Assembly (NCBI GenBank): GCA_038874185.1
Contig: JAVZCX010000005.1
Location: forward strand, 1 to 24,000
Direction of reading: 5' to 3'
Source of the DNA: Candidatus Micrarchaeia archaeon
GTDB taxonomy: Archaea; Micrarchaeota; Micrarchaeia; CABMEP01
Length of the DNA: 24,000 nt
The position numbers were made by a program, and so were the translations under genes. Below the pieces are notes generated by a model that saw only the letters and a list, made by a program, of their open reading frames with translations, did not search any database and had not been told where the DNA came from. Positions 1-21,374 of the stretch are shown here, in pieces; position 1 is the stretch's first letter, and every line of letters starts with the position of its first letter.

Positions 1-111
1 TGTTTTTTGCTTTATTTCCTGTTTTTTATCCAATTTCACTTATTCACCTTTTAAGTGTTTATTTGATTATAGATAATTATAAAAAATATATTTAAATTGT
101 TCATATGACTA

Positions 112-972
112 TTACTCAATCTTCTCATAGCTACTTAATCTCAATTCCATGCCTTCGCTTGAAATAGTTATTGGGAATGGAAGATCTGAAATTGCTATCT
201 TTGTTTCCGAAACAGAAGTTGATTGAGAAGGATAATTTGTAGGCTGTTCATATGATCTTAACAGATATTCCTTAACATTAAAGCTTCCAGCCTCTGTATT
301 CATATTCGATGTTCTATTCAAATCAATTAGGCTTTCCATGCAGATTCTTGTTGGAATGTCTGCAGGCATGCAATCTGCTGATTGAGGGTATTCCTTACCT
401 TGTACTGAAAATATATATGATGCGTTAAGACAATTAAAGTTTGAATCATAATTATAGAGCATTGTTATTTCTGAAACTGTTTGCTCGAAATCTGCTGTGG
501 ATGTGTTAGAATTATTTGATGAATTATTTGATGAAATTTCATAAAATTGGGAAAGATTCATAAAATAAGTAATTTTTCTAACATAACCGATACCGCTAGC
601 ATGGCTCTCCTTTCTTTCTGTCTTATAATCTATATAACCTATCTCAATCAAAGAGCTGTTAGTTCCATAAACATACCAATCATATCTTACATTGTACTTC
701 ACACTGTCTTTGGTAATTGGTGAATCGCATTCAGAAAGATAGGAATAATTTGATTGTTGAATAGAACTGGAAACGTTCAAATATGATGAAGACTTGACAT
801 TTTTAGAAAGAAAACTTGGTAAGATTGACAAAATATATGCGATTATAAATAATCCAACTATAATTGCAAGATAAAAGACAAAATGCCTTATGAAATCTGA
901 TTTTGCTGTATTTGCATCTTCTTTAGCTAATTTTTCTTTAATTTTTTTGCTTTTCTTTGATTTTTCATCCAT
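112..972 (-). CDS. Single-pass (type II-like) membrane-anchored protein with an N/S-rich ectodomain; unknown function; last gene of the array transcription unit in this window
   Basis: 286-aa ORF. K-rich N-terminus (MDEKSKKSKKIKEKLAKED) is followed by one hydrophobic span (FVFYLAIIVGLFIIAYILSILPSFL). The rest is rich in N, S, T and Y, with about ten N-x-S/T sequons by manual count and several Cys. GGTGAT Shine-Dalgarno motif lies 4 nt upstream of the ATG (rc of 973-990). Confidence 0.7.
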   Translation of the reverse strand: MDEKSKKSKKIKEKLAKEDANTAKSDFIRHFVFYLAIIVGLFIIAYILSILPSFLSKNVKSSSYLNVSSSIQQSNYSYLSECDSPITKDSVKYNVRYDWYVYGTNSSLIEIGYIDYKTERKESHASGIGYVRKITYFMNLSQFYEISSNNSSNNSNTSTADFEQTVSEITMLYNYDSNFNCLNASYIFSVQGKEYPQSADCMPADIPTRICMESLIDLNRTSNMNTEAGSFNVKEYLLRSYEQPTNYPSQSTSVSETKIAISDLPFPITISSEGMELRLSSYEKIE

Positions 973-1046: not shown

Positions 1047-2333
1047 TCATAACATTCTAAACATTGTCCTTCCGATCTCAGATATATCAGCTCCCAAAAT
1101 GCTTGAGAGAGAACGGATAAATATGAAAGTAACTCCAAGAGAGATTAACATATAAACAAATGCCATAAATCTCATAGAATTCATGCCTGCTTGTATCTTA
1201 AGTGTAGATGCATCTAACTGCGCAAAATCCTCTGCTCCAGATGTTAATATGGATTCGGTTGCACCAATATTGACTGGACAGGATTTTTCTACCATCTCAG
1301 GGCTTAATTGAATCTGCAAATTACAACCCTCAATCTGTCTTGGCCCACCTACGTAAAGAAGAGTATAAACTAATGGATAAACAAAATAAAATCCGATTGC
1401 AATCGCCACCAATACTGCTCCTGCACCCCTTGTTGGTGGAAATGAACGCAGTATCAAACCGATTGGTAAGAAGAGTGTAAATAAAGAAGTTTCAATAAAC
1501 TTTAAAACTGCAATCTGTGCATATAAGAAAAGTGAAAGCCATGCTAACTCATTCATATTATAATCTGCCTTTGCAGCTGTGATTGCCCAAGATTTCACAA
1601 ATGCAAATGGATTTGGAAGTGGCAGACTCAGATCCTTTTTTTTACTTAGCTCAATAATGATTCCCAAATACATTGTCATTAACTTGGAATATGTTTTTGC
1701 TTTGTCATACTCTGTTTTCATTTGTTGCTTTGCACAGTCTAGCATGTTTCTCATAAACGCAAGAGATACATCAAACGGGCTTATTTGGATTTGGCCCGAT
1801 AAAGCCCCTGCTTGAACCGAACCACCAGAAGAATTAAGAACCAATGCGGCTGTAATCGTCCTAGATGTGCCCTCTAATTTTGTTAGCATGTCTGTTTCAA
1901 ATGTTTCAAAGCCAAAAAGGAATGCTATAAGAAGGGCTGATGCTAAGACCTGCATTAGTTCTGCAAATGCAATTCTCTTAAATTGATCAGATTGAAATGC
2001 ATATGCAATCATATAAAATATTGCAACGCCAAGAAATGCAATCAGCAGAACAATAGTTGAGACTACAAACCAAGGTGATAATCCACCCGCAGGTGTAGAT
2101 TTAAGAAGTGTTTTTTTACTCCAACATTCTGCACTTGTAATGCAGTCCCTGCATGTATTATTATCACAGATTTGACCCTGCGGACAATCCAAATGAGAAG
2201 TGCAGGAACGAGCGTAGATGAAATTTGAAAGAATTATTAAAAATAAAATGAATAAAACAAAATAGGAAAATCTATGCATGAACTTTGTTGCTTTTACTTC
2301 TTCCTTTTTGAATTTATTAACTGTTATTTTCAT
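1047..2333 (-). CDS. Polytopic membrane protein, paralog P6 of an unrecognised family; carries a six-Cys N-terminal ecto-module
   Basis: 428-aa ORF. Signal peptide ends in IYA|RS, followed by CTSHLDCPQGQICDNNTCRDCITSAEC and several hydrophobic spans. Core family motif FLPIGLILRSFPPTRGAGAVLVAIAIGFYFVYPL. C-terminal tail GADISEIGRTMFRML. Confidence 0.85.
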   Translation of the reverse strand: MKITVNKFKKEEVKATKFMHRFSYFVLFILFLIILSNFIYARSCTSHLDCPQGQICDNNTCRDCITSAECWSKKTLLKSTPAGGLSPWFVVSTIVLLIAFLGVAIFYMIAYAFQSDQFKRIAFAELMQVLASALLIAFLFGFETFETDMLTKLEGTSRTITAALVLNSSGGSVQAGALSGQIQISPFDVSLAFMRNMLDCAKQQMKTEYDKAKTYSKLMTMYLGIIIELSKKKDLSLPLPNPFAFVKSWAITAAKADYNMNELAWLSLFLYAQIAVLKFIETSLFTLFLPIGLILRSFPPTRGAGAVLVAIAIGFYFVYPLVYTLLYVGGPRQIEGCNLQIQLSPEMVEKSCPVNIGATESILTSGAEDFAQLDASTLKIQAGMNSMRFMAFVYMLISLGVTFIFIRSLSSILGADISEIGRTMFRML

Positions 2334-2546
2334 ACGCTCACTTATACTATGAATAATACTCTGATTATAGATTTAAATTATATTTTAAATTATATTATGA
2401 TTAAATTATATTTATGAATTTATGAATAAATACAAATTAAATTAAATATTTATGCCATTATTACACCATTATTTATATTAATATACCATCTCACACTTGT
2501 ATCATTTTGTCATCAATTTATAACCTATACTCTTCATTTGTATTGT
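2334..2546 (-). promoter_or_regulatory. Probable internal promoter/regulatory spacer upstream of paralog P6
   Basis: Longest spacer in the array (213 bp) and extremely AT-rich. Contains three copies of the 12-mer TTAAATTATATT (2373-2384, 2385-2396, 2401-2412), 40-80 bp upstream of the P6 start. Confidence 0.35.
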
Positions 2547-3752
2547 TTATATCATTCTAGCCAAACCTGAGATATCAACTTCCTGTCCAAATGCACGACT
2601 CAGTTCTCTAACGATTGCTACTAAAATAATCCAATTTATTGCTGGAAGCAGAAAGACAGGCAACAATGTTTTACCTACCTCAATATAGCCTGAATTGAAC
2701 ATATCAACTGCAGTATTCAAAGAGCCTGAAAGAACCAACAGAAATGCTCCACCACCTAAGAGAGGTACAATTGTAAGCGGACCTAACGCAAGGATTGTAA
2801 CAGTTATTGATGACTCCCAATCCAACTGTGGGGGAGAAACTGGTTGTGGGGAGTTTATTATCATATAAGAAAATGAAAATAATATTGGATAAAAGAACCA
2901 CAAACCCAAAGCCAAAGCAATAAATGCTCCGCCAAGATCACGTGTGGGAGAAAAACATCTTAAGACAACTCCAACTGGTAATAAAAGATTGAGAAAATAT
3001 GTTTGAATTGAATATAAAACCACTTTATATCCGTGCAAAAGAGATATAGAAAGCATGATAAGGCTTGAAAACCAATTTAAACCACCCAAGGCAACACTTG
3101 TACCGGAAAGCAAGTTAGTGTATAACCCTATCTTTACAAAATTTCCTAGTGGAAGGAATGAAGGTGCGTTTACGGATATCCTACTTAGAGCAGATATATA
3201 CATTATAGAATTCATCATCTTTAAATATGCTGAAAGAGCAAGGGATTCTGCATAATCAAAATATTTTCCAGCAGTATCAAAAAATGATGCATCTGCAAAA
3301 CCGAATTGAGTCAGATCCACAGAACAAAATACCAATATAACACTATAAAGAACTCCAAGCATAATTGCAGTAACAAAGATTTGGATGATGTCTGTTTTAA
3401 CTCTTGCAAGCAAAGATGAAGCATCCAAAGCCTTTGCTATAAGAAACATGATAGATAATAGAGCAAATGATGCTAAAAGTCCAATCAAAGACAATGATTT
3501 CCAATTTTGTTCAACTCCAATCGGATTGCTTGTACTTTGGTTGCCGAAGTCTAATTGTAGAGCTACCTCGCAACCTTTAGGAACAGTTTGTTCTGTCGGC
3601 TGTTGTGACTGTGCAAAAATAAATGGTAATAATAAGAGTAAAAATGTAATTGCAGATGCAAATAAATGAATGTTTAATTTATAGCTGTAATTTTTTTTAT
3701 CAGACTTATTGTGATTAATTAATTTATGATAAATGAACTCTTTAATTTTCAT
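2547..3752 (-). CDS. Polytopic membrane protein, paralog P5 of the same family
   Basis: 401-aa ORF. Long n-region signal peptide ends in IFA|QS. Core motif LLPVGVVLRCFSPTRDLGGAFIALALGLWFFYPI. C-terminal tail GQEVDISGLARMI. GGTG SD-like motif upstream of the ATG. Confidence 0.85.
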   Translation of the reverse strand: MKIKEFIYHKLINHNKSDKKNYSYKLNIHLFASAITFLLLLLPFIFAQSQQPTEQTVPKGCEVALQLDFGNQSTSNPIGVEQNWKSLSLIGLLASFALLSIMFLIAKALDASSLLARVKTDIIQIFVTAIMLGVLYSVILVFCSVDLTQFGFADASFFDTAGKYFDYAESLALSAYLKMMNSIMYISALSRISVNAPSFLPLGNFVKIGLYTNLLSGTSVALGGLNWFSSLIMLSISLLHGYKVVLYSIQTYFLNLLLPVGVVLRCFSPTRDLGGAFIALALGLWFFYPILFSFSYMIINSPQPVSPPQLDWESSITVTILALGPLTIVPLLGGGAFLLVLSGSLNTAVDMFNSGYIEVGKTLLPVFLLPAINWIILVAIVRELSRAFGQEVDISGLARMI

Positions 3753-3823
3753 CGAAACACCAAATTACATATCAAATTCATAATGTATACAGTATATATT
3801 GATTAAATATATATCTCCTTATT

Positions 3824-3859
3824 AATCATTATATCAACCTAACAATCATTATATCAACC
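3824..3859. repeat. 16-bp direct repeat AATCATTATATCAACC x2 (period 20 bp) spanning the stop codon of paralog P4
   Basis: Copies at 3824-3839 and 3844-3859. The second encodes the last residues and stop (R-L-I-stop) of P4 on the minus strand. The first is an intergenic duplicate of that 3' end. Confidence 0.8.
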
Positions 3860-4997
3860 GCACCAATGTGCTCAGATCTATTTCTCCGCCCATCAACTCT
3901 GCAAGCCTTCTTATCACATTCAATGTTATTAAATATGCCATTAATGGAAGAACTGTTGCTTGAACTAATATAATATTTAGCATCTCAGTAGTTTTTGAAG
4001 ATGATAATTCATGCTTTAGTAGAGAAAGCAGATCCTCCGAAACCGCCCCCCGTACACCCAAGGAAATTGAATGAATAAGTACACTTAAAAAGCTAGTATC
4101 AATATCTGCTTTGCAAACGTCTGTTCCATTAAGAATATAGAAACCTATATCTTCTATAACTAAATAAAAGAATGGAAGAAAGATAGTAAATCCAAACACA
4201 ATTGCAATCAAAGCTGATCCTGCACCCCTTGTGTATGGAATTGTACGAAAGATCAGACCTAAAGGAAGCAGAACATTAAACAACCCTAATTGAAATTCTG
4301 ATGAAAGAAACACTGATTGGAGCGTAAGCTGCATCAAAACCGAACCGATAACCCCCATTGCAAGCGAACCAAATCCGATAAATCCGCCACCTGTTGGAAA
4401 GAGCGGAAAGTATTGATTATATTGACCTATCGATATAGACAAAGATGAGCTAATAGGAACTGAAAACACGCCAATGAATTTTATTAAATAAGCAGATGCC
4501 TTCTTTGTATACCCTATTAAACATGATACATAATTTAATACGTGTGCCTGAAGACTTACCCAGCTTGTTGAACTTATGCTTCTTTGGCTCTCTTGAAGTG
4601 GATTGACCCAATTTGTCTTAAGCAACGCAGGTGAAAATTTATCTAAAGTACTAAGAAGTCCTAAATAGATCATGAGAATAACCGCAGTTCCCAATACTTG
4701 AAAAAGAATCTCTTTTGATTTATTTATCAGGCTAGGATTCTCTAAAAACATTCCAAGTCCATAAAGCAATGCAACTATACTAATCATTGTCAGCATTAGA
4801 ATAACAGAGAGATTGACTAATACATCAGGAACACAAATACCATTCTTTATGTACGAGCCAAAACCGCATTGTGCTGCAAATGAAACTGGGCTGATTACAA
4901 CTAGAGATATCAAAAATAGAAGCAATGTTCCTTTTGACTTTGCTAACCTATTATCCTGATTTTTAATATTTTTAATATCAAAACCTATAATTGACAT
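3849..4997 (-). CDS. Polytopic membrane protein, paralog P4 of the same family
   Basis: 382-aa ORF. Signal peptide ends in SFA|AQ, followed by a C-x11-C ecto segment. Core motif LLPLGLIFRTIPYTRGAGSALIAIVFGFTIFLPF. C-terminal tail GGEIDLSTLVRLI. TAGGAG SD sits in the 17-nt spacer after the upstream gene. Confidence 0.85.
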   Translation of the reverse strand: MSIIGFDIKNIKNQDNRLAKSKGTLLLFLISLVVISPVSFAAQCGFGSYIKNGICVPDVLVNLSVILMLTMISIVALLYGLGMFLENPSLINKSKEILFQVLGTAVILMIYLGLLSTLDKFSPALLKTNWVNPLQESQRSISSTSWVSLQAHVLNYVSCLIGYTKKASAYLIKFIGVFSVPISSSLSISIGQYNQYFPLFPTGGGFIGFGSLAMGVIGSVLMQLTLQSVFLSSEFQLGLFNVLLPLGLIFRTIPYTRGAGSALIAIVFGFTIFLPFFYLVIEDIGFYILNGTDVCKADIDTSFLSVLIHSISLGVRGAVSEDLLSLLKHELSSSKTTEMLNIILVQATVLPLMAYLITLNVIRRLAELMGGEIDLSTLVRLI

Positions 4998-5014
4998 ACA
5001 AATCTCCTAATTTA

Positions 5015-6268
5015 CTAAATAATCCTCGTTAGTCCAGCAATCTCTGGATCTCCACCGATCATAGGTGAGAAGTGTCTTACAAACCCTAAGGTCACAAATA
5101 TTGCGAGAATTGGAAGTATGATTACTGATAGATATGCCCTTCCAAGTGCATCAAATAAACCTAATTTCACTAGTCTTGAACCATCATATTCACTGTATAA
5201 ATGTTCTATATTTGTAAATGACGATGTGGATCCAAGTAAAGGCCCAAAGATTGTAGCTGGATCAGATATCGAAAATGCAGTTACATCTATTTCTGGAAAT
5301 TGCGGTTCACCTAAAGTAACGGTTGACCTATCTATGCTATACCATGCTAAAACATACATCAATGGAACAAAGATGTAAATTCCAATTCCAAGAGCAATCA
5401 TAAGTCCGCCAAATTTTCTTAAAAACCAAAATGACCTTGAAACTATACCTATAACAAACAATAATCCTGAAAGAGAAGTTAGATATACTAATGCAAATTC
5501 CTGTATTTTAACTGCAGTTATTATTTTAAGATACTCTAAAAGTATTATCTCTATTATTTTGTTGTAGGAAAGATATTCTGGAAAAGCGCCGATTCCAAAT
5601 GAAAATGTAATTTGTTTTCCAAATAGAGTTACTTGGACTGAAGATCCGACTGATAATCCTTCATATAACTTCCCAACGAAATATGATTTAGAAAGCTGTT
5701 TTATAACCTGACCATATCGCTCGTATAATGAACCAAGGAAACCTCTAGCAATATAGATATGACATGGATATTCACAAGAAGGCGAACTAGTAGTTATAAG
5801 ATTCCATCTTCCTGTGCTGCTAACATAACTCCAATATTGAATGCTTCCATCTGCGGCAGTGGAAGAAAGAATGTCTTTTGCAAGTGAAGAAGCCAGACTC
5901 TCAACTATTCCAACGAAAGCAGTGAACAAAAAGAGAATTGCAATTGAAAGAACCACATTCATGGCTTCTTCCTTTGTCCATGCTTCCAGTTCACGCAATG
6001 CAAAGACCCTTGAAATCATAAATGCAATTCCCAAAAGTAAAATTACAATCAGCATTACAAAATAAGAAACAAACAGCCAATCTATATTTGTTGAAAAACC
6101 GAATACTCTTCCAACATTTGCTCCTGTCTGTGCGAATGCAACAGATGAAAGGAAAATAGATAAAGATAATACTAACAATACAAAATGAAGACTTTTGAAA
6201 CTAGCAAGATTAATGCAGATTCCGTTTTTATCCCCAGTTTTATCGTTTAATATAATAAGCCTTTTCAT
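5015..6268 (-). CDS. Polytopic membrane protein, paralog P3 of the same family
   Basis: 417-aa ORF. Signal peptide ends in AFA|QT. Post-TM1 helix SRVFALRELEAWTKEEAMNV. Core motif FVIGIVSRSFWFLRKFGGLMIALGIGIYIFVPL. C-terminal tail GGDPEIAGLTRII. The start codon overlaps the upstream stop as TAATG (6266-6270, minus strand). Confidence 0.85.
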   Translation of the reverse strand: MKRLIILNDKTGDKNGICINLASFKSLHFVLLVLSLSIFLSSVAFAQTGANVGRVFGFSTNIDWLFVSYFVMLIVILLLGIAFMISRVFALRELEAWTKEEAMNVVLSIAILFLFTAFVGIVESLASSLAKDILSSTAADGSIQYWSYVSSTGRWNLITTSSPSCEYPCHIYIARGFLGSLYERYGQVIKQLSKSYFVGKLYEGLSVGSSVQVTLFGKQITFSFGIGAFPEYLSYNKIIEIILLEYLKIITAVKIQEFALVYLTSLSGLLFVIGIVSRSFWFLRKFGGLMIALGIGIYIFVPLMYVLAWYSIDRSTVTLGEPQFPEIDVTAFSISDPATIFGPLLGSTSSFTNIEHLYSEYDGSRLVKLGLFDALGRAYLSVIILPILAIFVTLGFVRHFSPMIGGDPEIAGLTRII

Positions 6269-7146
6269 TATTCTCCCTTTAATTCTGCGAAATCATATTT
6301 AAATATTTCACTCAATGCTCTTGCACTTGCAATTGTAATGATACTGCTCAGTGCAGGAAAGAATACTGCCTGCGGTAGAATCAAACCTATGTTTTGCATT
6401 ATCTCCCGCATCTCACTTACTTGTAAGCAAGTGGAATCAAATTCAGTACTAATTCGTGAAGTAACAAAACCCTCTGTTGATTTCTCTGCAATTATATAAG
6501 TAAGTGGAAAAACGATATAAAATGCAAACGCGATTCCAATTATATAAGCAGCTGTATCTTTCATTCCAGGTATAATGCGTAATACTATTCCTATGGGTAG
6601 TAGATACTGAAATGCTATTATTGAAATAAAGATAAGGGCGTATTGCTGAATCATAAGGCTGGCAACAAATGGTGTAAGAAGTACTGCAAAATTCTCATAA
6701 ACGTTTGCGACTTCATTGCATCCTACTAACGGTGAATAAAAAAGTGCTTCATAGTCCTTTACCTCTGCGGAATAAATTCTGATTTCCTTTGCCTTGTTAT
6801 ACAATCCTTGTGATATGTCTGCAATTTGATTGCTTACTCTACCTGCATAGTTTATTGCAGATGTGAATGGGCTCTCATCATTCGTAATTGAGCAGGAAAG
6901 CGAGCAGGTAAGGTTAGCAACAATAGCTATGATTGAAATCCAGATAACTGCAACAGAAAGATGATAGAGCTCAAGTCTTACCATTGCTTCCCAATCACGC
7001 CTATTCAAAAATCTTGAAATCATGAAACCTATAGCCAATGCTAGAAGAACGATAAATATCAGAGCACCGATTGTAGGCATCCAATTTAAGTAATCTGATG
7101 ATAAAGTGCAAGTACCTAAACATGTTGGTATTTCACTGAATGTCAT
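6268..7146 (-). CDS. Polytopic membrane protein, paralog P2 (short form without N-terminal signal peptide)
   Basis: 292-aa ORF. It starts directly at the short ecto segment (PTCLGTC ... NWMP), then TM1. Post-TM1 helix SRFLNRRDWEAMVRLELYHL. Core motif LLPIGIVLRIIPGMKDTAAYIIGIAFAFYIVFPL. The tail is divergent (SEIFKYDFAELKGE). AAGGAG SD sits in the 23-nt spacer upstream. Confidence 0.85.
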   Translation of the reverse strand: MTFSEIPTCLGTCTLSSDYLNWMPTIGALIFIVLLALAIGFMISRFLNRRDWEAMVRLELYHLSVAVIWISIIAIVANLTCSLSCSITNDESPFTSAINYAGRVSNQIADISQGLYNKAKEIRIYSAEVKDYEALFYSPLVGCNEVANVYENFAVLLTPFVASLMIQQYALIFISIIAFQYLLPIGIVLRIIPGMKDTAAYIIGIAFAFYIVFPLTYIIAEKSTEGFVTSRISTEFDSTCLQVSEMREIMQNIGLILPQAVFFPALSSIITIASARALSEIFKYDFAELKGE

Positions 7147-7169
7147 GAATATTCAACTCCTTTAGCAGG

Positions 7170-8777
7170 TCATACAAGTTCCGCTACTCCAAGAATCTGC
7201 ACTTCTCCACCAATCGCAGGTGAAATAGATCTAATTCCAGTGACTACAACTATAAGAATAATAAATGGTAAGAAAATAAAGGGAACTACATATTGAAGAA
7301 TGTAAGGGAGATAGTTCAACATCATATCTACGATATAAGGTGCAAGATCTTTATTTAATGCAACATATGCGCCCAATAATGCAATGTTTGAAATAGACTG
7401 TGCAATAGCTGATACATAATTAGATATTAATGTTGCAAAGGCAGGTGTTACAGGTGGAGAGGATACTACTTCTATAGCTTGCTCTAATAATCCAGGTATA
7501 GCAACTATGCTAGGTAGAGAGATGGTTCCAATATATGGAGCTACATTTGTACCTGTGATAGTACTTATCCAAGTAATTCGTATTGCATTAAATCCAGCTT
7601 CAACCTTCTCCATCAAATCAATAGATGCTGGCTCATTGAATAATGCTTTTATGACGTCACAGATCAATATAAATATGGGTGCACAGACTGGAGCGAATAT
7701 ACCACATATTGATGAATATGACACTCCAGATGTAATACAAAATGGTATATAGCTAAATGGACCCTGTGTACCTACGTTCAAGATGCCACTTATTACTCCT
7801 ATAGCAAGATGACCTAGAAAATCAACTATTGCGTACCATTTAATTGTATTAACAAAAACATCCACCTTCCCGGGTTTGTTTATGTGAGGAATCGCTGTAT
7901 TGGGTTGAAATGCAGAATTATACATTGTTTGAAAGATAATAATTGAAAGAGGTACGAAGATATAAAGACCAATACCAAAGGCGATAAGAGTTCTACCCAT
8001 TTTTCTAGTGATTGTAAAGAAGTTTAAAAATAAACCAAATGGAATTAAGACAGGAAGTGCAATCTTCCATACAAAATTAAGAATTGCATTAGAAAAAAGA
8101 GACACTATCAGAGCAAAAAGTGAAACTGATTGAATCATACCCATATGAGAATTAAAAACATCCACACCTGCAAATGGATTGCCTATTTTCATTGTAAACA
8201 TATCTAATCCAATTACCATAAGTCTAAATTTGGTTCCTGGCTGTTCTGTATCACCGCCTTTATTATCACCTGCAATCTTAGTAACCAGATTATATTGTGG
8301 TGGTGGACCAGATAATAATCCAAGTGCATATCCCAAGCGAATAGTATCAAGATAAGCATCCATTAGTTCGTTGGCTATCGAATCCAAAAAATTAGTGGAT
8401 GCGTGCATTGGCGTATAACCTGTGACTGCAACATAGATATTATCTATTACACCCACTGCTATTAATAGTATAAGAACTAAAAATAAACTGGCAGATACTT
8501 CATATAATTCTGACTTTGCCCATGTTTCCAGTTTCGGAAGACTGAATGCCTTTCCTAACATGAAACCTATTCCTGCTAAAAGAAATCCGATCAAAGCCAC
8601 AATTCCTAGTACTGGGAGCCAGTTTGGAATGGCGATACCTAATAATCGTTCACCTTCTGAATCTGAAATCTGCGCATAAGAAATAGAAAGTAAACTGAAA
8701 AATAAAAATAGCAAAATCACATATGGCTTTATTTTTTTAAATAGACTGGGGAGGATGGTATATAAACTTAACATCAA
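7170..8777 (-). CDS. Polytopic membrane protein, paralog P1 (longest; first gene of the array)
   Basis: 535-aa ORF. The track start at 8777 is a TTG, so the ATG at 8772-8774 is the more likely start. Signal peptide ends in SYA|QI. Post-TM1 helix GKAFSLPKLETWAKSELYEV. Core motif LIPFGLFLNFFTITRKMGRTLIAFGIGLYIFVPL. C-terminal tail GGEVQILGVAELV. No SD upstream, consistent with a first-in-operon or short-leader gene. Confidence 0.85.
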   Translation of the reverse strand: MMLSLYTILPSLFKKIKPYVILLFLFFSLLSISYAQISDSEGERLLGIAIPNWLPVLGIVALIGFLLAGIGFMLGKAFSLPKLETWAKSELYEVSASLFLVLILLIAVGVIDNIYVAVTGYTPMHASTNFLDSIANELMDAYLDTIRLGYALGLLSGPPPQYNLVTKIAGDNKGGDTEQPGTKFRLMVIGLDMFTMKIGNPFAGVDVFNSHMGMIQSVSLFALIVSLFSNAILNFVWKIALPVLIPFGLFLNFFTITRKMGRTLIAFGIGLYIFVPLSIIIFQTMYNSAFQPNTAIPHINKPGKVDVFVNTIKWYAIVDFLGHLAIGVISGILNVGTQGPFSYIPFCITSGVSYSSICGIFAPVCAPIFILICDVIKALFNEPASIDLMEKVEAGFNAIRITWISTITGTNVAPYIGTISLPSIVAIPGLLEQAIEVVSSPPVTPAFATLISNYVSAIAQSISNIALLGAYVALNKDLAPYIVDMMLNYLPYILQYVVPFIFLPFIILIVVVTGIRSISPAIGGEVQILGVAELV

Positions 8778-8846
8778 TTATTATTAAAAGAAAAGAATTT
8801 AAAATTAGATATATATATGTAGATAGTACAAAATAATAGGGAAAGA
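8778..8846. promoter_or_regulatory. Divergent promoter region between the paralog array (minus) and the 1057-aa bitopic protein gene (plus)
   Basis: This 69-bp AT-rich spacer is the only non-coding DNA between two head-to-head units. It contains TATA-like runs (TTAAAATTAGATATATATATG). No transcription start site can be assigned by eye. Confidence 0.4.
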
Positions 8847-11800
8847 ATGATGAAAAAATTGATTACGAAAATGGAACTTGCCTTTGACCATATTTTGCTT
8901 TATGTACTTATTTTAACTTTTCTCTCTTTCTTATCTTCTTCTCTTTATGCTGTAAACATCTGTCCAATAGATAAGAACCCAACAGAAATAACAATCGAAC
9001 ATTCAAGGCATCCGATAAATATACCTATAGGTATAACTGATAATACAATCGATGTTAATATACAACTTAATGCAATCGATAGAAAAACGCAAAATAGAAT
9101 ACCTCTCGCAAATAAGCAGGTTCTAATAGAACTCGTACTTGGAAGCAAATTTGTAACAAAAAATGCAGCTGGTGACTTTGTTCTTTCAGATGAACCAGCT
9201 CCGTTTCCAATAAATACAAGTGAAAACGGAACTATTTCCTTCACGATTTTTACTCAACCCCCACTTCTTGAAAATGTAACTGACCCAAGAAAGATCTCAT
9301 ATTCAATAACTGCTACATTTACACCGAAACCAAAAGAACCATTGATGGGAAGTGTGAAAACAGAGCGGTATGTCCCAGGTGTGCTTCCAATCATAAGCAT
9401 GACTGCTTGTGCTCCTCTTTTCATAATATTTGCTCTTCTTGTTGCTGCGATGTTTGCATCTGGAAAGAATCCGTTTGGTTTATTTGACTTTTCAAGAGTT
9501 GCGTTTAAAGCGCCAAGAATTCAGCCTGGAAGAGTTACAACTAGGGCTAAAACAACTGTTGGCACAGCACTAGCTGGAACTGCAGCTGGTGTTCTAAAAA
9601 GTGTGCTCGAATATGAAAAACGAAAAGCGATGAGAAAAGGATTAGAAAGTTTAGAGAAGAAGGCTGAAGAACTTGAAAAACAAGGAAAGAAAGAAGAGGC
9701 CGCTAAAGTAAGAATGCAGGCTGCAACACTTTTAGACAAGGTAGGAAGGAGATTATCTATAAAAGAAATTAAAGAAAAGGAAAAGAAAGAAGCAGAGCTT
9801 GGAATTGAAAAAGAAGAAGTAAAATTTAGACCTAAAATGTTAATAAAGGGATTAAGCCAAGAAGAATACAAGGCACTTAGAGACAGATATAACATAAAAG
9901 ACATAGAAAAATTCCGTTTTGGCGAGATTTTAACCGCATCATTATTGCAGGCAATGTCTAGATTGGGATACAAACCATGGATATATGCACATGGTATGGC
10001 AGTGGCAATGGAAAGACAAAGACCTATAAATAGATTAAATAAAGATGAAATCGAGAAAACTACAGAGGACATAACAAAAACTTTCAAATTAACTAAAGAG
10101 GAAATAGAAGAACTGAAAAAGAAGAATATAAAATTAGTTGATGAGAATGGATTAACTCCAGAGGCAAAGAAGTTTCTGCTTGAGAAATTTTTGAATGCAG
10201 GATATATACCAAAAAGCATCCAAAGCGAATTCACCAGGTTAGGAATTCTTAACGTTAATACGTTAAAAACAGAAATCGAACTTATAGATAAAATGAAAGG
10301 TAAGATAGGTGAAAAACAAATAGATGAGAAAATTGCCAATAAATTATTCCCTACAGCAGAAGAAATGCAAAATACGACTCCAAAAACAGCTAAGAATTTA
10401 GATCAACTTGTTAATCTACTTAGAAGTGGAGACTATACAAAAGCGGAAAAACTGATTAACAAAATGGAAAACAATAGAAATGAAATGCTTAACAAAATAA
10501 TGCCTTCGATTCCGACTGGAAGAACTTACGATCTATTACCACCTTTAGAAAAACAAGAAATCGCTTATTATATACAACGCGGTGTAATCTCAGGAAATGA
10601 ATTTTATAAGCGCCTTGGAATAGAAATGACAGAGCATGAATTGGCACGATCGCTTGGATTAGTTGCAAATGAATATGGAATTCCTAAAGATTTAGCAAAA
10701 GCCATAAAAGAGAATGATTACAAATACATCAAAGAAGTATATGATAAAACTGAAGGCAATAAAGAACAACGAAAGGTATTTGAATACATCATAAATGAAG
10801 CAGGAATAGGATATGCGCTCAATTACTTTGGAAACAAGAAAGATTTGGATAATTTCTTAACAAGCGAAGGAAAAGGTGGGATGAATCGTGATCAAATAAG
10901 AGATGCCGTAATTAAGACGTATGGTTATGAAAGCTTAAAACCGTATTTGCAAAATGCAGTAGGAAAAGATGAAATTGAAAAAGTTAATTATCTCATGAAA
11001 GAAAGGATTGATACTTTAAGAAATGAGATTCAAAATCTAGAAGGCAAAGTACCTAGAGACGATACGAAGCTCGCATCTTTAAGAACAGAATATAATAATT
11101 TAAGTGATTATAGAAAAGAAATAGAAAATAGAACAAACACATTAAGCCTGTTAAAAGATATAAATCAAAATAATAATATCTTCAGTCCCGACAGTATCGC
11201 GAGAGAGATAAGTGATATAAATGCAAATTATTGGAAAACTTATACCGAATCACTTAATTCTGTAATCAAGAAAAGTAAAGAGGTAGAGATAGAAAGCTTG
11301 ACAAAGGATGTCAATAAAACACTTTATAATGCAGCTGTCAGTTCAAACGATCCAGATGTAAAGAAACAACTATTGGAAGAATGGCGAAAAGTAAATAAAT
11401 TAGAAGGGAAGGAACCAACAATGGTTGGAGAGATTCGTAATGAATTTGAATCTCTCAAAACAGTGAAGGAATCACTAACAAACTCAATTGAGACTTTAAA
11501 TGATGAAATAAGTAAAAAACAAGCGATAATAAACGATTCTAAAACGCCTCCTGACGAAAGAAAAGAACTAGAAAATCAGATAAACAAACTTAAAAACATA
11601 ACATCAAACTTAGAGGATACCAACAAGAAATATGAGATAGATAAAAATTATAAAGAATACAAAACAATTTTAGAAGAACATACCAAAATGTTTAATGAGC
11701 ATCCTTATTTAGAGTACGGACATATTGATTCTATTTCTAAATTACCTGTAGAAGAAATTAAATATACATCTAATAGGGATGACCCTATTAACTCTCAACA

Positions 11801-12020
11801 CCTAACTCAAGCGAATGATATATTTCAAGCGTTCACTGCATTTAGTAACAGCAGTCTTGCCATGTATATTAAAAGAGTAGGCGAAGAAAACGGTTGGAAT
11901 GAAAAATGGCGTGAGCCTCCGACTTATTCTGAAAAAGAAATGAAAAAATTCAATGATGCTTTCTGGGGAGGTGAGGAAGAAAAGAAAGTAAATATGGAAT
12001 TTACTAAAAGTAAGGAATAA
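8847..12020 (+). CDS. Large bitopic membrane protein: signal peptide, beta-rich (Ig-like?) ectodomain of about 140 aa, single TM, about 850-aa K/E-rich helical cytoplasmic domain
   Basis: 1057-aa ORF. Signal peptide is LSFLSSSLYA|VN. Ectodomain (aa 36 to about 178) shows alternating beta-like patterns (VLIELVLGS, GTISFTIFT, ISYSITATFTP). TM is LPIISMTACAPLFIIFALLVAAMFA (about nt 9381-9458), followed by a basic stretch (KAPRIQPGRVTTRAKTT). The remainder is long runs of E, K, L, I and N typical of coiled coil. Transcribed divergently from the paralog array. Confidence 0.85.
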   Translation: MMKKLITKMELAFDHILLYVLILTFLSFLSSSLYAVNICPIDKNPTEITIEHSRHPINIPIGITDNTIDVNIQLNAIDRKTQNRIPLANKQVLIELVLGSKFVTKNAAGDFVLSDEPAPFPINTSENGTISFTIFTQPPLLENVTDPRKISYSITATFTPKPKEPLMGSVKTERYVPGVLPIISMTACAPLFIIFALLVAAMFASGKNPFGLFDFSRVAFKAPRIQPGRVTTRAKTTVGTALAGTAAGVLKSVLEYEKRKAMRKGLESLEKKAEELEKQGKKEEAAKVRMQAATLLDKVGRRLSIKEIKEKEKKEAELGIEKEEVKFRPKMLIKGLSQEEYKALRDRYNIKDIEKFRFGEILTASLLQAMSRLGYKPWIYAHGMAVAMERQRPINRLNKDEIEKTTEDITKTFKLTKEEIEELKKKNIKLVDENGLTPEAKKFLLEKFLNAGYIPKSIQSEFTRLGILNVNTLKTEIELIDKMKGKIGEKQIDEKIANKLFPTAEEMQNTTPKTAKNLDQLVNLLRSGDYTKAEKLINKMENNRNEMLNKIMPSIPTGRTYDLLPPLEKQEIAYYIQRGVISGNEFYKRLGIEMTEHELARSLGLVANEYGIPKDLAKAIKENDYKYIKEVYDKTEGNKEQRKVFEYIINEAGIGYALNYFGNKKDLDNFLTSEGKGGMNRDQIRDAVIKTYGYESLKPYLQNAVGKDEIEKVNYLMKERIDTLRNEIQNLEGKVPRDDTKLASLRTEYNNLSDYRKEIENRTNTLSLLKDINQNNNIFSPDSIAREISDINANYWKTYTESLNSVIKKSKEVEIESLTKDVNKTLYNAAVSSNDPDVKKQLLEEWRKVNKLEGKEPTMVGEIRNEFESLKTVKESLTNSIETLNDEISKKQAIINDSKTPPDERKELENQINKLKNITSNLEDTNKKYEIDKNYKEYKTILEEHTKMFNEHPYLEYGHIDSISKLPVEEIKYTSNRDDPINSQHLTQANDIFQAFTAFSNSSLAMYIKRVGEENGWNEKWREPPTYSEKEMKKFNDAFWGGEEEKKVNMEFTKSKE

Positions 12021-12032
12021 AAATTGAATTAA

Positions 12033-13364
12033 TCACCGGCCAAAAAATTTTTGCCTTTTCATTTTCTCTTCTGCAATCCGCATTACTTTTTCTGCCTCTT
12101 CATCGTCTTTGAACTCTACGGATTCACCTTTAAGTAATTTATCTGCCAACTCTTCAAGATGCTCCCTTTCCTTGTCCCATTGCTGTTGAAGTTCTTTCAA
12201 TAATGGTTGACCTTTGCAAACTTCTGCTGCCTTATCAATATACTTTTGATAAAATGGAAGCATTGCTGTTGATATTTCTATTCTTTTATCAATCAATTTT
12301 CTAATAAGATCACTAATAAATCTGACTCCCTCATCTAGTTTCATTGATTTGTGTCCCCAAAGTTTATTCCACTCATCATCTGATAAATCCTTATTATATT
12401 TTAAGAAATCTGATACCTTACTATAAGGTAAGTTCTTTATAAATTCTTTTTGGATTCCATGATGGACTTTATTGATTTTCTTGGCATCATTTCCTTCTTT
12501 TTGGATTGAATTAAGAAGTGTACCTTCTATTCGAGCTAGATGCTCCTTTGCTTCATTTGCAATTATAATAAAACTCTTCTCGTCTGCAAAATCTCTGAAT
12601 ACGTTATCTCGAAGAAAGCAAGGAGTAGAAAGCTCCCTGACATTGCTAACGGCATAGTTTGTAAGTCCTACATTATACAATAGATCACTGATTGCCCTGT
12701 ACAACATACGAAAGTAGAATTCATAATACCACTTTCTATATGAAAATGAAACATTATATTCCATTGCAGGTTTTACTACCTCTGAAATGGTCAAAACAGA
12801 TCTAATCCAATCCATATGACGAATTAGTCTATCCTTTTTTTCTAATTCAGGGGTCAATTCATCTTTCTTCTTATATATATCATTTTTCAATCTAAATACA
12901 AAAGTGCGCATTTGTAAAACCTTTAACGCCTCAATTATTCTTTCGTTTTTTTCCTTTCCGATTCTCTCTTCAACTTTTTCCATTAACTCGGGAAGTCTCT
13001 TATATTTACAGTGATATACGGCCTCCTTAATTTGAGAAGTTAAATCCTCTATTTCTTTGTCATTGATATAATACTTCCATTTCAAGTCGGAAATGTGGGA
13101 AAAGAGAAGATGGTTATGGTGGGATTCATCAAAATCCAAGCTGCTAATATTGAAAAAAATATCTTCATTCATATTTGTGTCTTGTGAAGAAGTATACGAG
13201 CTTAAATTATCAACGGTAGTAGAGCTCGTACCTATCGTTTCTTGTGAATATGAAGGAAACATAAGTCCTGCAGCTAGAACAGTGCCAAATGCAAATCTCT
13301 TGATTCTATCTTTTATTCGGTATGTCGTCTTTATTTCCTTTTCTGCCATATATTTTATTAGCAT
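12033..13364 (-). CDS. Exported or anchored alpha-helical protein, unknown function
   Basis: 443-aa ORF. Basic N-terminus plus hydrophobic span (RFAFGTVLAAGLMFPSYSQ), then an S/T-rich linker and a large domain that looks helical and rich in K, E and aromatic residues. The true start may be the internal Met (MAEKEIK). Confidence 0.7.
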   Translation of the reverse strand: MLIKYMAEKEIKTTYRIKDRIKRFAFGTVLAAGLMFPSYSQETIGTSSTTVDNLSSYTSSQDTNMNEDIFFNISSLDFDESHHNHLLFSHISDLKWKYYINDKEIEDLTSQIKEAVYHCKYKRLPELMEKVEERIGKEKNERIIEALKVLQMRTFVFRLKNDIYKKKDELTPELEKKDRLIRHMDWIRSVLTISEVVKPAMEYNVSFSYRKWYYEFYFRMLYRAISDLLYNVGLTNYAVSNVRELSTPCFLRDNVFRDFADEKSFIIIANEAKEHLARIEGTLLNSIQKEGNDAKKINKVHHGIQKEFIKNLPYSKVSDFLKYNKDLSDDEWNKLWGHKSMKLDEGVRFISDLIRKLIDKRIEISTAMLPFYQKYIDKAAEVCKGQPLLKELQQQWDKEREHLEELADKLLKGESVEFKDDEEAEKVMRIAEEKMKRQKFFGR

Positions 13365-13544
13365 TTCTTATTAATATTTTTTGCTTTTATTCTCTTTTAA
13401 TTTTATGTTCATCGGCTGGGGATTCAATAAATCAATAAAATTAGAAGAATATATTAAAGATGAATATAGTAAAATGGAAAAGGATAAAAATCAAGAAAAA
13501 AGATAATTACGGTAAAGAATATAAATAAGAAATTCGAGAATAGT
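13365..13544. promoter_or_regulatory. Divergent promoter region between 12033-13364 (minus) and 13545-14375 (plus)
   Basis: 180-bp AT-rich non-coding spacer between head-to-head genes. Confidence 0.35.
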
Positions 13545-14375
13545 ATGGTAGAAAAAATGGAAAAGGAAAGAGATAAAATAAAGAAAAAAGAAGAAAGCTT
13601 GACAGAAAAGATAAGAAGACCTATTGTAGAGAATATTGCAAAAGGACTAATAGGTTTTGGATTAATTTTTAATCCTGTGAAAGCAAACGCATTCTACGAC
13701 TACTATTATCTATATTATCCAGAATATAAAGAAATTGCTGAAATAATAGATAAGGATTTTGATGAGGAAAAAGGTAAAGTAATAAAGGAAATGTGGAATG
13801 CAAGAGAGAAAGACATGACCAAAAAAGCGATTGACATTCTAACTAATTTAGAAATAATGGAAATAGATCTAGAAGAGAAATATAATATAATAGAAGATAA
13901 AAAGAAATTCTATTTATATAGTATTCTTTTAATGAAGCAAGCAGAGTTCAATACTATAATTGATACCAAAGAAAAAGAAAGATTGCTTTATTTGGTAAGA
14001 GACAGAGTAACGAGAGAACTTGAAAAAGATCCTTATAATGTAGATACTCTGGAATTGGTACTTTTGAATGATAAAATATTGAAAGACATGTACCAAGAAG
14101 CAGGTTATTATATTGATATATATTATGAAGATGCAAGGAAACAAGGAAGACTTGAAATTAAAAACATAAGAACTAAATTCATAAATTCTATAAAGAGTTT
14201 CAAAGAACATTATGATAAATTAAACGAATTATTAAATATAGATAAGAATAAACGAACTTCTATATTTGACTATAGTAATAGAGAAAAGAAAAAGAAGATT
14301 AAAAGAATGATAGAAAAATTCGAAAATGATATGATTAGTATTGAAATGGATCTTAGAAAAGAAAGGCTCTTATAA
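13545..14375 (+). CDS. Exported or anchored K/E-rich helical protein, unknown function
   Basis: 276-aa ORF. Basic N-terminus, then a short hydrophobic span (IAKGLIGFGLIFNPVKANA|F), then a helical K/E/Y-rich sequence. Forms a divergent pair with 12033-13364. Confidence 0.65.
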   Translation: MVEKMEKERDKIKKKEESLTEKIRRPIVENIAKGLIGFGLIFNPVKANAFYDYYYLYYPEYKEIAEIIDKDFDEEKGKVIKEMWNAREKDMTKKAIDILTNLEIMEIDLEEKYNIIEDKKKFYLYSILLMKQAEFNTIIDTKEKERLLYLVRDRVTRELEKDPYNVDTLELVLLNDKILKDMYQEAGYYIDIYYEDARKQGRLEIKNIRTKFINSIKSFKEHYDKLNELLNIDKNKRTSIFDYSNREKKKKIKRMIEKFENDMISIEMDLRKERLL

Positions 14376-14410
14376 GTGCAATAATCAATATATAGAATTC
14401 TAAAATGAAA

Positions 14411-14431
14411 AGATATTAAAAAAATAAAACA
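14411..14431 (-). terminator. Putative archaeal oligo-T terminator for the tbp-domain gene
   Basis: An A7 run at 14418-14424 on the plus strand gives T7 on the minus strand, about 17-23 nt after the tbp stop. More T-rich sequence follows (minus strand reads TTTGTTTTATTTTTTTAATATCTTTTC). This is weak evidence in such an AT-rich genome. Confidence 0.3.
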
Positions 14432-14440
14432 AATTATAAA

Positions 14441-14719
14441 TCATCTCTTCTTCTGTGCTTTTTGAAGAATTGCCATTGCATTTCTGATTGCTAATTTTAC
14501 TTCTTTTTCTGTCTTGCAACCTGTACAGATTATCTTTCCATTCTTGAAGAGAAGTAATGATGATTTTGGTTCTTTAAGCTTAAGAATAGCTCCTGGGAAT
14601 TGCTCAGGCTCATATTCGATATTTGGAACCTTCCTTCCAAGAGAATAAAGATCCAGTTCGATTCCTAAGTTTGCTGATGCTACAATATTCTCAATCTTAA
14701 ATTTGACATCTTTCGCCAT
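14441..14719 (-). CDS. tbp: TATA-box-binding-protein domain protein consisting of a single TBP repeat (92 aa, half the normal TBP length)
   Basis: KFKIENIVASANLGIELDL ... NIEYEPEQFPGAILKLKEPKSSLLLFKNGKIICTGCKTEKEV matches the canonical TBP repeat (IENIVAS...L.L, EYEPE.FPG, EPK...L.F.SGK.V.TG.K). The protein ends in a basic tail (QKAQKKR) where the inter-repeat linker would start. GGGTG SD-like motif lies upstream of the ATG. Confidence 0.85.
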   Translation of the reverse strand: MAKDVKFKIENIVASANLGIELDLYSLGRKVPNIEYEPEQFPGAILKLKEPKSSLLLFKNGKIICTGCKTEKEVKLAIRNAMAILQKAQKKR

Positions 14720-14947
14720 TAAAACACCCTTTAAAAGCCCGATTATAACTCGGCCTTTTTAAATACTTAAATTTATATACCTCGGAAAGTATTTAAACCT
14801 ATTTAAATAGATAAAATTGCTGAGGATCTCATTTAGATATATGTATATTTTTAAACTTATCCTACATATATTATATCAATCTACATATTCGTTAGTATAG
14901 TTAGAATAAATTATAGCTAAATTTTGATAGATTTTTGAAGTGATATT
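14720..14947. promoter_or_regulatory. Divergent promoter region between the single-repeat tbp (minus) and the rpl21e operon (plus)
   Basis: 228-bp spacer with several TTTAAATA-type TATA-like elements and an 11-bp perfect inverted repeat (listed separately). Confidence 0.4.
14758..14797. repeat. Perfect 11-bp inverted repeat TTTAAATACTT / AAGTATTTAAA separated by 18 nt
   Basis: Read directly: 14758-14768 TTTAAATACTT, and its exact reverse complement at 14787-14797. Confidence 0.8.
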
Positions 14948-20567: not shown

Positions 20568-21374
20568 ATGATAGAGATTATTAGAATATTGATTGCATTG
20601 GCAGGAACTGGAATTGCTGCTTATTATGATATTTTCAATAAAAAGAATGTACCTGAGCTATTTCTTTACTCATTCCTTGGAATTTCATTACTTTTGAATA
20701 TATTTGATTATTCATTGTTTTTAAAATTCCTTCCGATTGCAATTCCCTTGGTACTTGTGCTTTATATATTGTATCTTAATGGACAGATTGGTGGCGCAGA
20801 TGTTATAGTATTGGCAGCAATATACTCTGCATTGCCTGCATTTCCACTGGATGAAAATCAATTCGTTCCTTCTTCATTGATGGTTCTTGCAATTGCTACT
20901 GTGCTTGCTTCCGTATGGATTATGATAAAATACTTCCCAAGAATTATCAAGAGATTTAATGAAGGAAAGATGAAAATAAATCTGTGGCAAGCACTCCAGA
21001 TCATATTGCTCTTATTTTCATTTGCTCTATTAATTTATATGTTTATGTTATTCCCATTCCTGCCTGCTTGGTTGCTTTTGGTTTCAGGAATACTTTTCTT
21101 TGAATCTATATTCTTTATAATTTCAAAAGAACAGCTGATGCAAGAAATGGTAGTCATGAAGAAAAAGATAGAACCTGAAGATGTAATTGCAATAGAAATG
21201 TTGGACAAAAAAATTATAGAAAGATACAAAATAAAAAGACTAAGTGACGAGAAGCAGGCAAAGATGCTAAGCAAAACAGGAAGGAAATGGCCTGTCCTGG
21301 ATATGCCTATGTTTCTTCCATTCATATTAATCGGCCTGATTATTTATATATTGGCTGGCGTTTCTCTTATATAA
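20568..21374 (+). CDS. Peptidase A24 family (archaeal prepilin/preflagellin peptidase-like, FlaK/PibD/EppA type)
   Basis: 268-aa polytopic protein with two candidate catalytic Asp at family-typical positions. D21 lies in AAYYDIFNKK at the end of TM1. D78 lies in GQIGGADVIVLAAI, a GxGD-like motif. GAGGGTG SD upstream. Confidence 0.7.
   Translation: MIEIIRILIALAGTGIAAYYDIFNKKNVPELFLYSFLGISLLLNIFDYSLFLKFLPIAIPLVLVLYILYLNGQIGGADVIVLAAIYSALPAFPLDENQFVPSSLMVLAIATVLASVWIMIKYFPRIIKRFNEGKMKINLWQALQIILLLFSFALLIYMFMLFPFLPAWLLLVSGILFFESIFFIISKEQLMQEMVVMKKKIEPEDVIAIEMLDKKIIERYKIKRLSDEKQAKMLSKTGRKWPVLDMPMFLPFILIGLIIYILAGVSLI

Follow-up and report, generated by a model that had tools for sequence, protein, structure and literature searches.

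A tandem array of six paralogous membrane protein genes, which is conserved in fixed composition and order in Micrarchaeota, was identified in a 24,000-nt stretch of DNA (hereafter the window) from a metagenome-assembled genome (MAG) of Candidatus Micrarchaeia (DPANN). The array occupies positions 1047-8777 on the minus strand. The six proteins are tentatively read as subunits of one VirB6-like membrane platform, an obligate hetero-oligomer that would act in host or cell-surface interaction, a reading that we hold at somewhat below an even chance. A preliminary description of the window had listed six consecutive minus-strand open reading frames (ORFs), and all of them were recovered with the same lengths and positions. 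The six genes are as follows (TM, transmembrane helix):

7170-8777, minus strand: paralog A (position 1), 535 aa from TTG or 534 aa from the ATG at 8774 (the NCBI call); signal-like N-terminus, 5-TM core and large TM4-TM5 insertion; core block 7947-8051, tail 7173-7214.
6268-7146, minus strand: paralog B (position 2), 292 aa, the compact member, which lacks a signal peptide as well as the C-terminal tail; core block 6502-6606.
5015-6268, minus strand: paralog C (position 3), 417 aa; core block 5360-5464, tail 5018-5059.
3849-4997, minus strand: paralog D (position 4), 382 aa; core block 4170-4274, tail 3852-3893.
2547-3752, minus strand: paralog E (position 5), 401 aa; core block 2883-2987, tail 2550-2591.
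1047-2333, minus strand: paralog F (position 6), 428 aa; core block 1371-1475, variant tail 1050-1091.

Protein A is identical to NCBI QXE90_00985, and protein D to QXE90_00970. The genes A to D are tightly packed, either overlapping or separated by at most 23 bp; a gap of 96 bp precedes E, and a very AT-rich gap of 213 bp precedes F. The N-terminus of F is a Cys-rich ecto-module, for which Pfam gave weak Cys-rich repeat matches.

The paralogy of the six ORFs, proposed earlier from shared motifs, was confirmed by sequence comparison. All six proteins were connected by pairwise searches, with top scores of 59 bits in blastp and 53 bits in phmmer. A family hidden Markov model (HMM) built without A or B gave 166 bits for A and 110 bits for B, whereas none of 200 residue-shuffles per protein exceeded 7.8 bits, and the homology is therefore not compositional. 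The six ORFs are true paralogs. The strings previously given for the amphipathic helix, the core block and the tail all occur verbatim in the translations. All of the six except B begin with a signal-like segment that ends in [FY]-A, and the amphipathic segment after TM1 was reproduced in the family alignment. The most conserved region is the TM-loop-TM core block, with the consensus L-L-P-x-G-h-x-L-R-x-F-P-x-T-R-x-x-G-x-x-L-I-A-h-x-h-G-h-Y, in which the G, R, R and G residues were invariant among 60 aligned sequences. The C-terminal tail is also found in five of the six and is missing in B. The reported combination of a conserved core and variable loops was reflected in the identities between the window proteins and their orthologs, which are 25-53% in the TM blocks and the tail, compared with 9-21% in the exposed loops.

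The family had been described as unassignable, and it has no match in Pfam, NCBIfam, PHROGs or the PDB sequences. The Pfam and NCBIfam scan of ten local proteins returned sub-threshold noise only, and the Pfam search of 60 diverse members (E≤1) and of the consensus sequences (E≤10) revealed nothing in common. The sequence-profile search of the PDB gave 0 matches at E≤10, and PHROGs zero matches to the family. When 1.84 billion cluster representatives were searched exhaustively with the HMM, 2,996 proteins passed E≤1e-3 and 2,118 passed E≤1e-10, and all of the named members are hypothetical proteins of Micrarchaeia or Micrarchaeota. PF04610 and the FlaJ/TadC family were likewise unmatched in the HMM checks. 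No account of this array was found in the literature searched, and it appears to be undescribed there.

The distribution of the array was surveyed by scanning each GTDB species, represented by one genome, with a single motif-based peptide pattern; this returned 63 loci, a lower-bound count from a sample biased toward one motif variant. The loci were labelled Micrarchaeota, Micrarchaeia, Anstonellales or Bilamarchaeaceae (55 loci), only 'archaeon' or 'uncultured archaeon' (5 loci), and 'Candidatus ainarchaeum' (3 loci), a label that may mean Iainarchaeum. Local hmmsearch analysis of Micrarchaeota genomes and metagenomes found exactly six tandem co-directional members in 57 fetched loci and in the window; each of 15 shorter arrays lies at a contig end or is explained by overlapping ORF calls. 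Among the top 20 cross-locus matches for each position, 91-100% came from the same array position, and the members therefore constitute six ancient orthogroups in fixed order. The same six in the same order were also present in a very divergent contig of 57% GC (L074), and neither gain nor loss of a member was seen in the 58 complete arrays. The earlier proposal of a membrane complex is strengthened, though not proven, by these six fixed-order orthogroups in every complete locus. We infer that a fixed six is the signature of an obligate one-of-each assembly, and not of an expandable receptor family. In one MAG, JBDRIM01, the array was seen on two contigs (L048 and L062), and this would be the only genome seen to carry more than one hexad; a true second array, heterogeneity among strains or contamination of the bin could each explain it.

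Some of the orthogroup members are greatly enlarged. In L074, the position 3 protein (7995-12374) has an insertion of about 1,100 aa between TM4 and TM5, and the position 4 protein (12374-14833) carries a Cys-rich N-terminal extension of about 490 aa. The position 3 protein of L009 (2433-7451) has an N-terminal extension of 1,330 aa with a discoidin (F5/8 type C) domain and faint Ig-like matches. The C orthogroup thus shows either N-terminal Ig-like/discoidin extensions or the 1,100-aa insertion in other lineages. Another enlarged member was noted at 2493-4934 of L006. Such single orthogroups with large Ig-like, discoidin or Cys-rich extensions might suggest six independent anchors or receptors, each forming its own homo-oligomer with a different ectodomain, so that the array would be a diversified receptor set. 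The strong variation of the exposed loops in sequence and length is consistent with this, as is the AT-rich gap that F has of its own upstream. However, such families normally vary in copy number, and the 58 complete arrays show no gain or loss and a fixed order; A to D are moreover spaced by at most 23 bp or overlap, and the systematic lack of the tail at position 2, in contrast to the other five, suggests a division of labour within one assembly. A set of independent receptors is therefore considered quite unlikely.

Hydropathy analysis and AlphaFold2 (AF2) models suggested a signal-like N-terminus (not in B) followed by five TM helices. Residue statistics were calculated for 348 proteins. 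K+R residues make up 12.7% of the TM1-TM2 loop, 23.7% of the TM3-TM4 loop and 10.7% of the tail, compared with 4.2-5.6% of the N-terminal segment and of both long loops. Cys is nearly absent from the TM1-TM2 loop (0.04%) and the tail (0.02%) and makes up 1.25-2.4% of the three outer segments, where it is often paired; the value of 1.0% in the TM3-TM4 loop was attributed to a recurrent 'LRC' in position 5. These statistics, together with the extracellular-type N-terminal fusions, place the mature N-terminus and the long loops outside the cell, and the same residue statistics place the R-x-F-P-x-T-R loop and the tail in the cytoplasm. The topology is N-out, C-in, with five TM. The strongest conservation lies in TM3, TM4 and the loop joining them, and in TM5 with the tail. 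The outward loops are thus Cys-bearing and fast-evolving, and the conserved parts face the cytoplasm.

The pattern of the tail holds across the 58 arrays. An [RKH]-h-h-COOH ending was found at positions 1, 3, 4, 5 and 6 in 38-57 of the 58 arrays, and at position 2 in none of them (0/58). It had been suggested that the shared tail docks to a common partner. Since the tail and the conserved loop are cytoplasmic, the partner in such a proposed docking must be cytoplasmic as well. A 5+1 pattern was also noted, in which position 2 is always without the tail and the window copy is also without a signal peptide; the solved VirB6 stalk is a pentamer.

Confident monomer models were obtained with AF2 for D (pLDDT 82.9, pTM 0.77) and B (pLDDT 81.8, pTM 0.73). 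In both, helices 30-50 residues long form an all-helical up-down bundle. According to the predicted secondary structure (not the coordinates), a TM2-TM3 helical hairpin might project well past the membrane. The preliminary description had named VirB6/TrbL channel subunits as the closest analogy, marked there as a hypothesis, and the structural comparison gave this independent but modest support. The top three Foldseek matches of B in the PDB were TrwI/VirB6 of the R388 type IV secretion system (T4SS) (7o3v_F, 8rtd_L and 8rt9_F), with probability 0.99, E 0.024-0.069 and TM-scores of 0.32-0.40. These alignments (275-282 aligned positions for about 270 target residues) span nearly all of both proteins; the fourth match had a probability of only 0.38. 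For D, TrwI/VirB6 also had the highest probability among the full-length PDB matches (0.54-0.57), and no match had E<0.1.

VirB6/TrbL proteins such as TrwI (R388; PDB 7O3V, 8RT9 and 8RTD) are likewise polytopic inner-membrane proteins, of about 290-350 aa. In one model of VirB6 from A. tumefaciens, the protein is N-out and C-in, with five TM and a large outward TM2-TM3 loop, as in the present family. The residue statistics, hydropathy and fusions of the family agree with a VirB6-type topology, in which a large loop after TM2 faces outward and the C-terminus is cytoplasmic; competing topology models of VirB6 exist (PMC2653234). Conservation in VirB6 is confined to the TM-segment and cytoplasmic region and the large periplasmic region is variable, which is a similar pattern, and an invariant, essential Trp lies in the conserved VirB6 region (PMC2653234). 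The conserved block of the family is in the equivalent place, but with an aromatic Phe instead of the invariant Trp. Other differences are also evident: six fixed paralogs are found here instead of a VirB6 homopentamer; the family has a conserved tail at the C-terminus and a signal peptide of the cleavable kind; no VirB2, B3, B4, B5, B8 or D4 was recognised within the up to 10 kb fetched to either side; and the genes are a chromosomal, phylum-wide core set, not a mobile element. In the T4SS, VirB6 is the base of the stalk carrying VirB5 (PMC12624023).

Multiple VirB6 paralogs are known from Rickettsiales, since Rickettsia retains five of them (PMC2653234). RvhB6a-e and Anaplasma VirB6-1 to VirB6-4 resemble the array in being several species-conserved paralogs in a reduced, host-dependent genome with large divergent extensions; the RvhB6 proteins have 674-1,154 aa and Anaplasma VirB6-4 more than 4,000 aa (PMC2653234, PMC7648143). 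However, these proteins carry a recognisable PF04610 domain within a complete T4SS with VirB4, B8-B11 and D4, whereas in the present family such a domain is not recognisable by sequence and no other T4SS parts were seen. The archaeal CedA and TedA are also VirB6-like polytopic membrane proteins. They are extremely divergent, with negligible mutual pairwise identity, and were linked by profile-profile and structure comparison only (PMC9905601). By description, they differ from the present family as single-copy proteins of Crenarchaeota with about 7 predicted TMs, accompanied by a VirB4-like ATPase and VirB2-like pilins.

A parallel in gene organisation is offered by Mce1A-F of mycobacteria, six fixed-order tandem paralogs, conserved as six orthogroups, which form a one-of-each heterohexamer, a lipid tunnel with long helical extensions driven by the ABC components YrbE/MceG. 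The likeness is in the logic only. The Mce proteins have a single TM and an MCE beta-barrel domain, and no match to this domain (PF02470) was found in the six proteins or 60 members, nor any ABC genes among the annotated neighbours. The parallel nevertheless points to another explanation, a hetero-oligomeric channel or transporter of new fold, unrelated to VirB6, whose pore or tunnel would import host lipids, nucleotides or other nutrients. DPANN archaea are without most biosynthesis and must import building blocks. The strict conservation of the six orthogroups, the long helices reaching beyond the membrane, and the lack of a significant sequence or structural match to anything would all fit such a transporter; so would a self-contained operon which has no ATPase and, in most lineages, unrelated flanks. 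On the other hand, the sole structural signal that does not look random is VirB6, no substrate-binding or energising component was found, and fast-evolving ectodomains with adhesin-type domains suit surface recognition better than housekeeping transport. A transporter is thus regarded as rather unlikely on balance. Recurrent weak Foldseek matches were also obtained to TTYH proteins (probability 0.2-0.5, TM-score≤0.27), which are eukaryotic and share no sequence similarity with the family. TTYH2 is a five-TM, N-out, C-in protein with an extracellular, disulfide-stabilised helical bundle of extended TM helices, and the resemblance is probably a convergent architecture.

The flanks of the array were annotated with Pfam for ten loci (L001-L007, L009, L010 and L043) and for three genes of L035, L057 and L074; those of the other loci were mapped by gene only, and most flanking genes are thus unannotated. 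In the window, the genes next to the array are the following:

112-972, minus strand: gene G, 286 aa; Lys-rich cytoplasmic N-terminus, one TM and an ecto-domain of about 230 aa.
1-33, minus strand: start of the gene for a giant Cys-rich surface protein; first 11 codons, with the remainder outside the window; start placed by eye from the L010 ortholog.
8847-12020, plus strand: gene H, 1,057 aa, divergent from the array.

A search for ATPases past the left edge of the window had been proposed; the gene there encodes instead the Cys-rich surface protein, of about 2,800 aa. It appears to start with GTG AAA TTG GAT AAA AAA CAG GAA ATA AAG, preceded by an AGGTGA-like sequence. In the window clade the order is the array, then G, then the giant gene. 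G always follows position 6 and is restricted to this clade (orthologs in L001-L005, L007 and L010-L014); it reads as a type II membrane protein whose ectodomain bears Cys and sequons. Orthologs of the giant protein with 2,791-2,943 aa occur in L009-L012 and L016. The protein has 138 Cys (4.9%), 72 N-x-S/T sequons and cupredoxin-like repeats, and its N-terminus is a hydrophobic segment ending in a lipobox-like LVSGC. The family of the giant protein was found in 13 fetched loci, and it is not within 10 kb of the array in most other Micrarchaeota.

H has, by eye, a signal peptide, an ectodomain of about 150 aa, one TM and a Lys/Glu-rich helical cytoplasmic domain of about 850 aa. H-like genes were recognised by the TM and a juxtamembrane 'G-x-N-P-x-x-x-F-D' region. 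They are divergent upstream of the array in the window clade and L016, co-directional upstream in L074, and located 3' of the giant gene in L009. Linkage in three arrangements argues for a functional linkage in those lineages, and H is a candidate cytoplasmic partner of the array. Upstream genes of about 920 aa were also considered as H by size, and this was rejected because the one that was scanned (L035) encodes LeuRS. In most other Micrarchaeota the array is flanked by AspRS/AsnRS, LeuRS, Nob1-like PIN_5, RNA ligase, CarS and SppA. The giant protein, G and H were thus rejected as universal partners, given the unrelated housekeeping flanks of other lineages. The annotated neighbours include no recognised ATPase of any secretion type, and the six-gene array is the only invariant unit of the loci.

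These neighbourhoods also bear on two other explanations. One is that the array was brought in by an integrated mobile element, either conjugative or viral, that encodes its own VirB6-like transfer pore. The VirB6-like fold hints would agree with this, and conjugation-derived systems exist in archaea (PMC9905601). However, the tblastn search with F against 72,556 plasmids and 50,697 phage records gave no match, neither PHROGs nor BFVD (the latter searched with D by Foldseek) gave a match, and no viral or conjugation family was found among the Pfam-annotated neighbours. The composition of the array also equals that of its flanks (GC of the window about 32%), synteny with TBP, L21e, Rpo4, KsgA and LysRS is kept, and the orthology is vertical and positional across the phylum. 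A mobile-element origin is thereby effectively refuted, with hardly any probability left. The other explanation is a cell-envelope scaffold for S-layer anchoring or organisation, envelope biogenesis or cell division, with no role toward a host. Its attraction lies in the phylum-wide vertical conservation beside housekeeping genes and in the S-layer that Micrarchaeota possess (bioRxiv 10.1101/2021.04.28.441871), where a six-fold composition might suit a hexagonal lattice. But no recognisable S-layer protein gene is linked in the loci, the S-layer protein of Micrarchaeum harzensis is about 101 kDa (bioRxiv 10.1101/2021.04.28.441871), unlike the giant neighbour, and the rapid evolution and adhesin-type insertions of the ectodomains would be unusual for a lattice anchor. 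A scaffold of this kind therefore seems decidedly improbable.

According to the favoured reading of a VirB6-like platform, six ancient, non-interchangeable paralogs, one of each, would form a single ring or platform in the cytoplasmic membrane. Three conserved elements on the cytoplasmic side might stabilise the ring and bind a partner in the cytoplasm: the amphipathic loop that joins TM1 to TM2, the R-x-F-P-x-T-R-x-x-G loop that joins TM3 to TM4, and the G-G-[DE]-h-x-h-x-x-L-x-[RK]-h-h-COOH tails that five of the subunits carry. The partner in the window clade would probably be the long cytoplasmic domain of H. On the outer side, the fast-evolving helical-hairpin ectodomains with their presumed disulfides would project outward and carry or gate a surface structure, which in the window clade might consist of G and the Cys-rich protein of about 2,800 aa. 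The whole platform may serve host-cell contact, or transfer to or from the host.

Several observations weigh against such a platform. VirB6 forms pentamers rather than hexamers, and its function always involves VirB4 and further components of the T4SS; no VirB4/HerA/FtsK-type ATPase or other T4SS gene was seen within the up to 10 kb fetched to either side, where most of the genes are unannotated. The linkage of H, G and the giant protein with the array is confined to one clade and to L009, L016 and L074, and in most Micrarchaeota the flanks are unrelated housekeeping genes. The Foldseek values (E 0.02-0.07, TM-score 0.32-0.40, root-mean-square deviation 8-9 Å) are under the usual thresholds, and membrane proteins with long helices draw spurious matches; TTYH2 and chemoreceptors appear too. 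PF04610 matched none of the six proteins, the 60 members or the consensus sequences, whereas the R46 TraD homologs used as a control all carry it. The VirB6 reference profile for hhalign consisted of R46 TraD and 14 PF04610 homologs (15 IncN-type sequences), which is narrow and of limited sensitivity; the family reached a probability of 0.3% and the six orthogroup profiles 0.1-1.7%, which are not significant. In favour of the VirB6 link, the sole aligned segment pairs the core motif of the family with the 'fGPIaIFcLlW-PTKG' region of VirB6, and it recurs in a long alignment of position 5. This region contains the essential Trp; the family has Phe, Ile or Leu at the aligned position, and no Trp. 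The platform proteins of the T2SSF family (GspF/PilC/FlaJ/TadC, PF00482) also had no match among the six proteins, the 60 members or the consensus. The VirB6 analogy thus has a structural side, the top PDB fold match of B, and is without sequence-profile support. A relationship to VirB6 is plausible, not established, with the chances about evenly balanced, and membership of PF04610 is not claimed.

In a further reading, which we consider unlikely, the hexad would be a conduit of the envelope that stands alone, needs no ATPase and is specific to Micrarchaeota. Either descended from the VirB6 pore or convergent with it, this conduit would form the membrane base of intercellular nanotubes or contact sites by which the archaea take material from their hosts. 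Its subunits might be arranged as a ring of six fixed paralogs, or as five tail-bearing subunits and one adaptor; H could act as a cytoplasmic scaffold, and the giant protein as the distal host-binding part.

The remainder of the window contains mainly housekeeping genes. Its right half includes TBP, L21e, Rpo4, DUF655, a Yip1-domain protein, KsgA, class I LysRS, Pus10, an A24 prepilin-peptidase-like protein and DUF63, as well as a gene which by eye we take to be the archaeal D-aminoacyl-tRNA deacylase. No tRNA or Rfam elements were found in the window. The TBP gene (14441-14719, minus strand) encodes only 92 aa, with a single TBP repeat and one PF00352 stretch. The usual TBP has two repeats and about 180 aa, so a half-size TBP would need to act as a homodimer; genes of 91-92 aa occur at the same place in the relatives L001, L003, L004 and L007. 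Between H and TBP are two unannotated proteins, of 443 aa (12033-13364, minus strand) and 276 aa (13545-14375, plus strand); in each, read by eye, a hydrophobic or signal-like N-terminus precedes a helical region rich in K and E. Of the two, the 276-aa protein is kept in L010-L012, and no relative of the 443-aa protein was detected among the neighbours. A 16-nt sequence, GGTTGATATAATGATT, is directly repeated around the stop codon of D, with 4 nt between the two copies (about 3822-3858, minus strand). Its first copy spans the last codons and the stop of D, and it resembles a small duplication of the 3' end of D.

The A24-like protein (20568-21374, plus strand) is a polytopic protein of 268 aa with a weak Peptidase_A24 match (E 9e-5, under the gathering score), and it may be relevant to the pilin-like genes of related genomes. 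An unannotated gene block of this kind (109, 248, 531, 159, 158 and 166 aa) lies at 14924-19046 of L043, about 3-7 kb 3' of the array. The same block was seen, by gene size, in L035, L037, L047-L053, L057 and L058. By eye, five of the L043 genes start with class III (type IV pilin-like) signals (KGQ/SSFELL, RGQ/VATEFLL, KGQ/YFSFDA, KKG/FLFT and K-A/FIFSLDA). The block thus looks like a pilin-like cluster near the hexad, though not adjacent to it.

The family comprises about 3,000 clusters at 50% identity, none of which is annotated in the libraries searched, and naming it would annotate six genes in each Micrarchaeota genome. To our knowledge, prokaryotic complexes of six fixed paralogs are rare. 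The array would be a VirB6-like variant if the VirB6 link holds, and categorically new if the link fails. DPANN archaea depend on physical contact with host cells. In the cultured Micrarchaeon ARM-1, proteinaceous intercellular nanotubes were observed by cryo-tomography, and no protein components were found named there (PMC11329633). In the Patescibacteria, an analogous bacterial radiation, T4SS including VirB6 are widespread and essential for epibiotic growth (PMC12102498). The array, with its phylum-wide occurrence, fixed composition, fast-evolving outer loops and possible VirB6-type fold, is a concrete candidate for the apparatus that joins Micrarchaeota to their hosts. If the link to VirB6 is true, the superfamily of conjugation pores would be extended into DPANN archaea without the usual ATPases.

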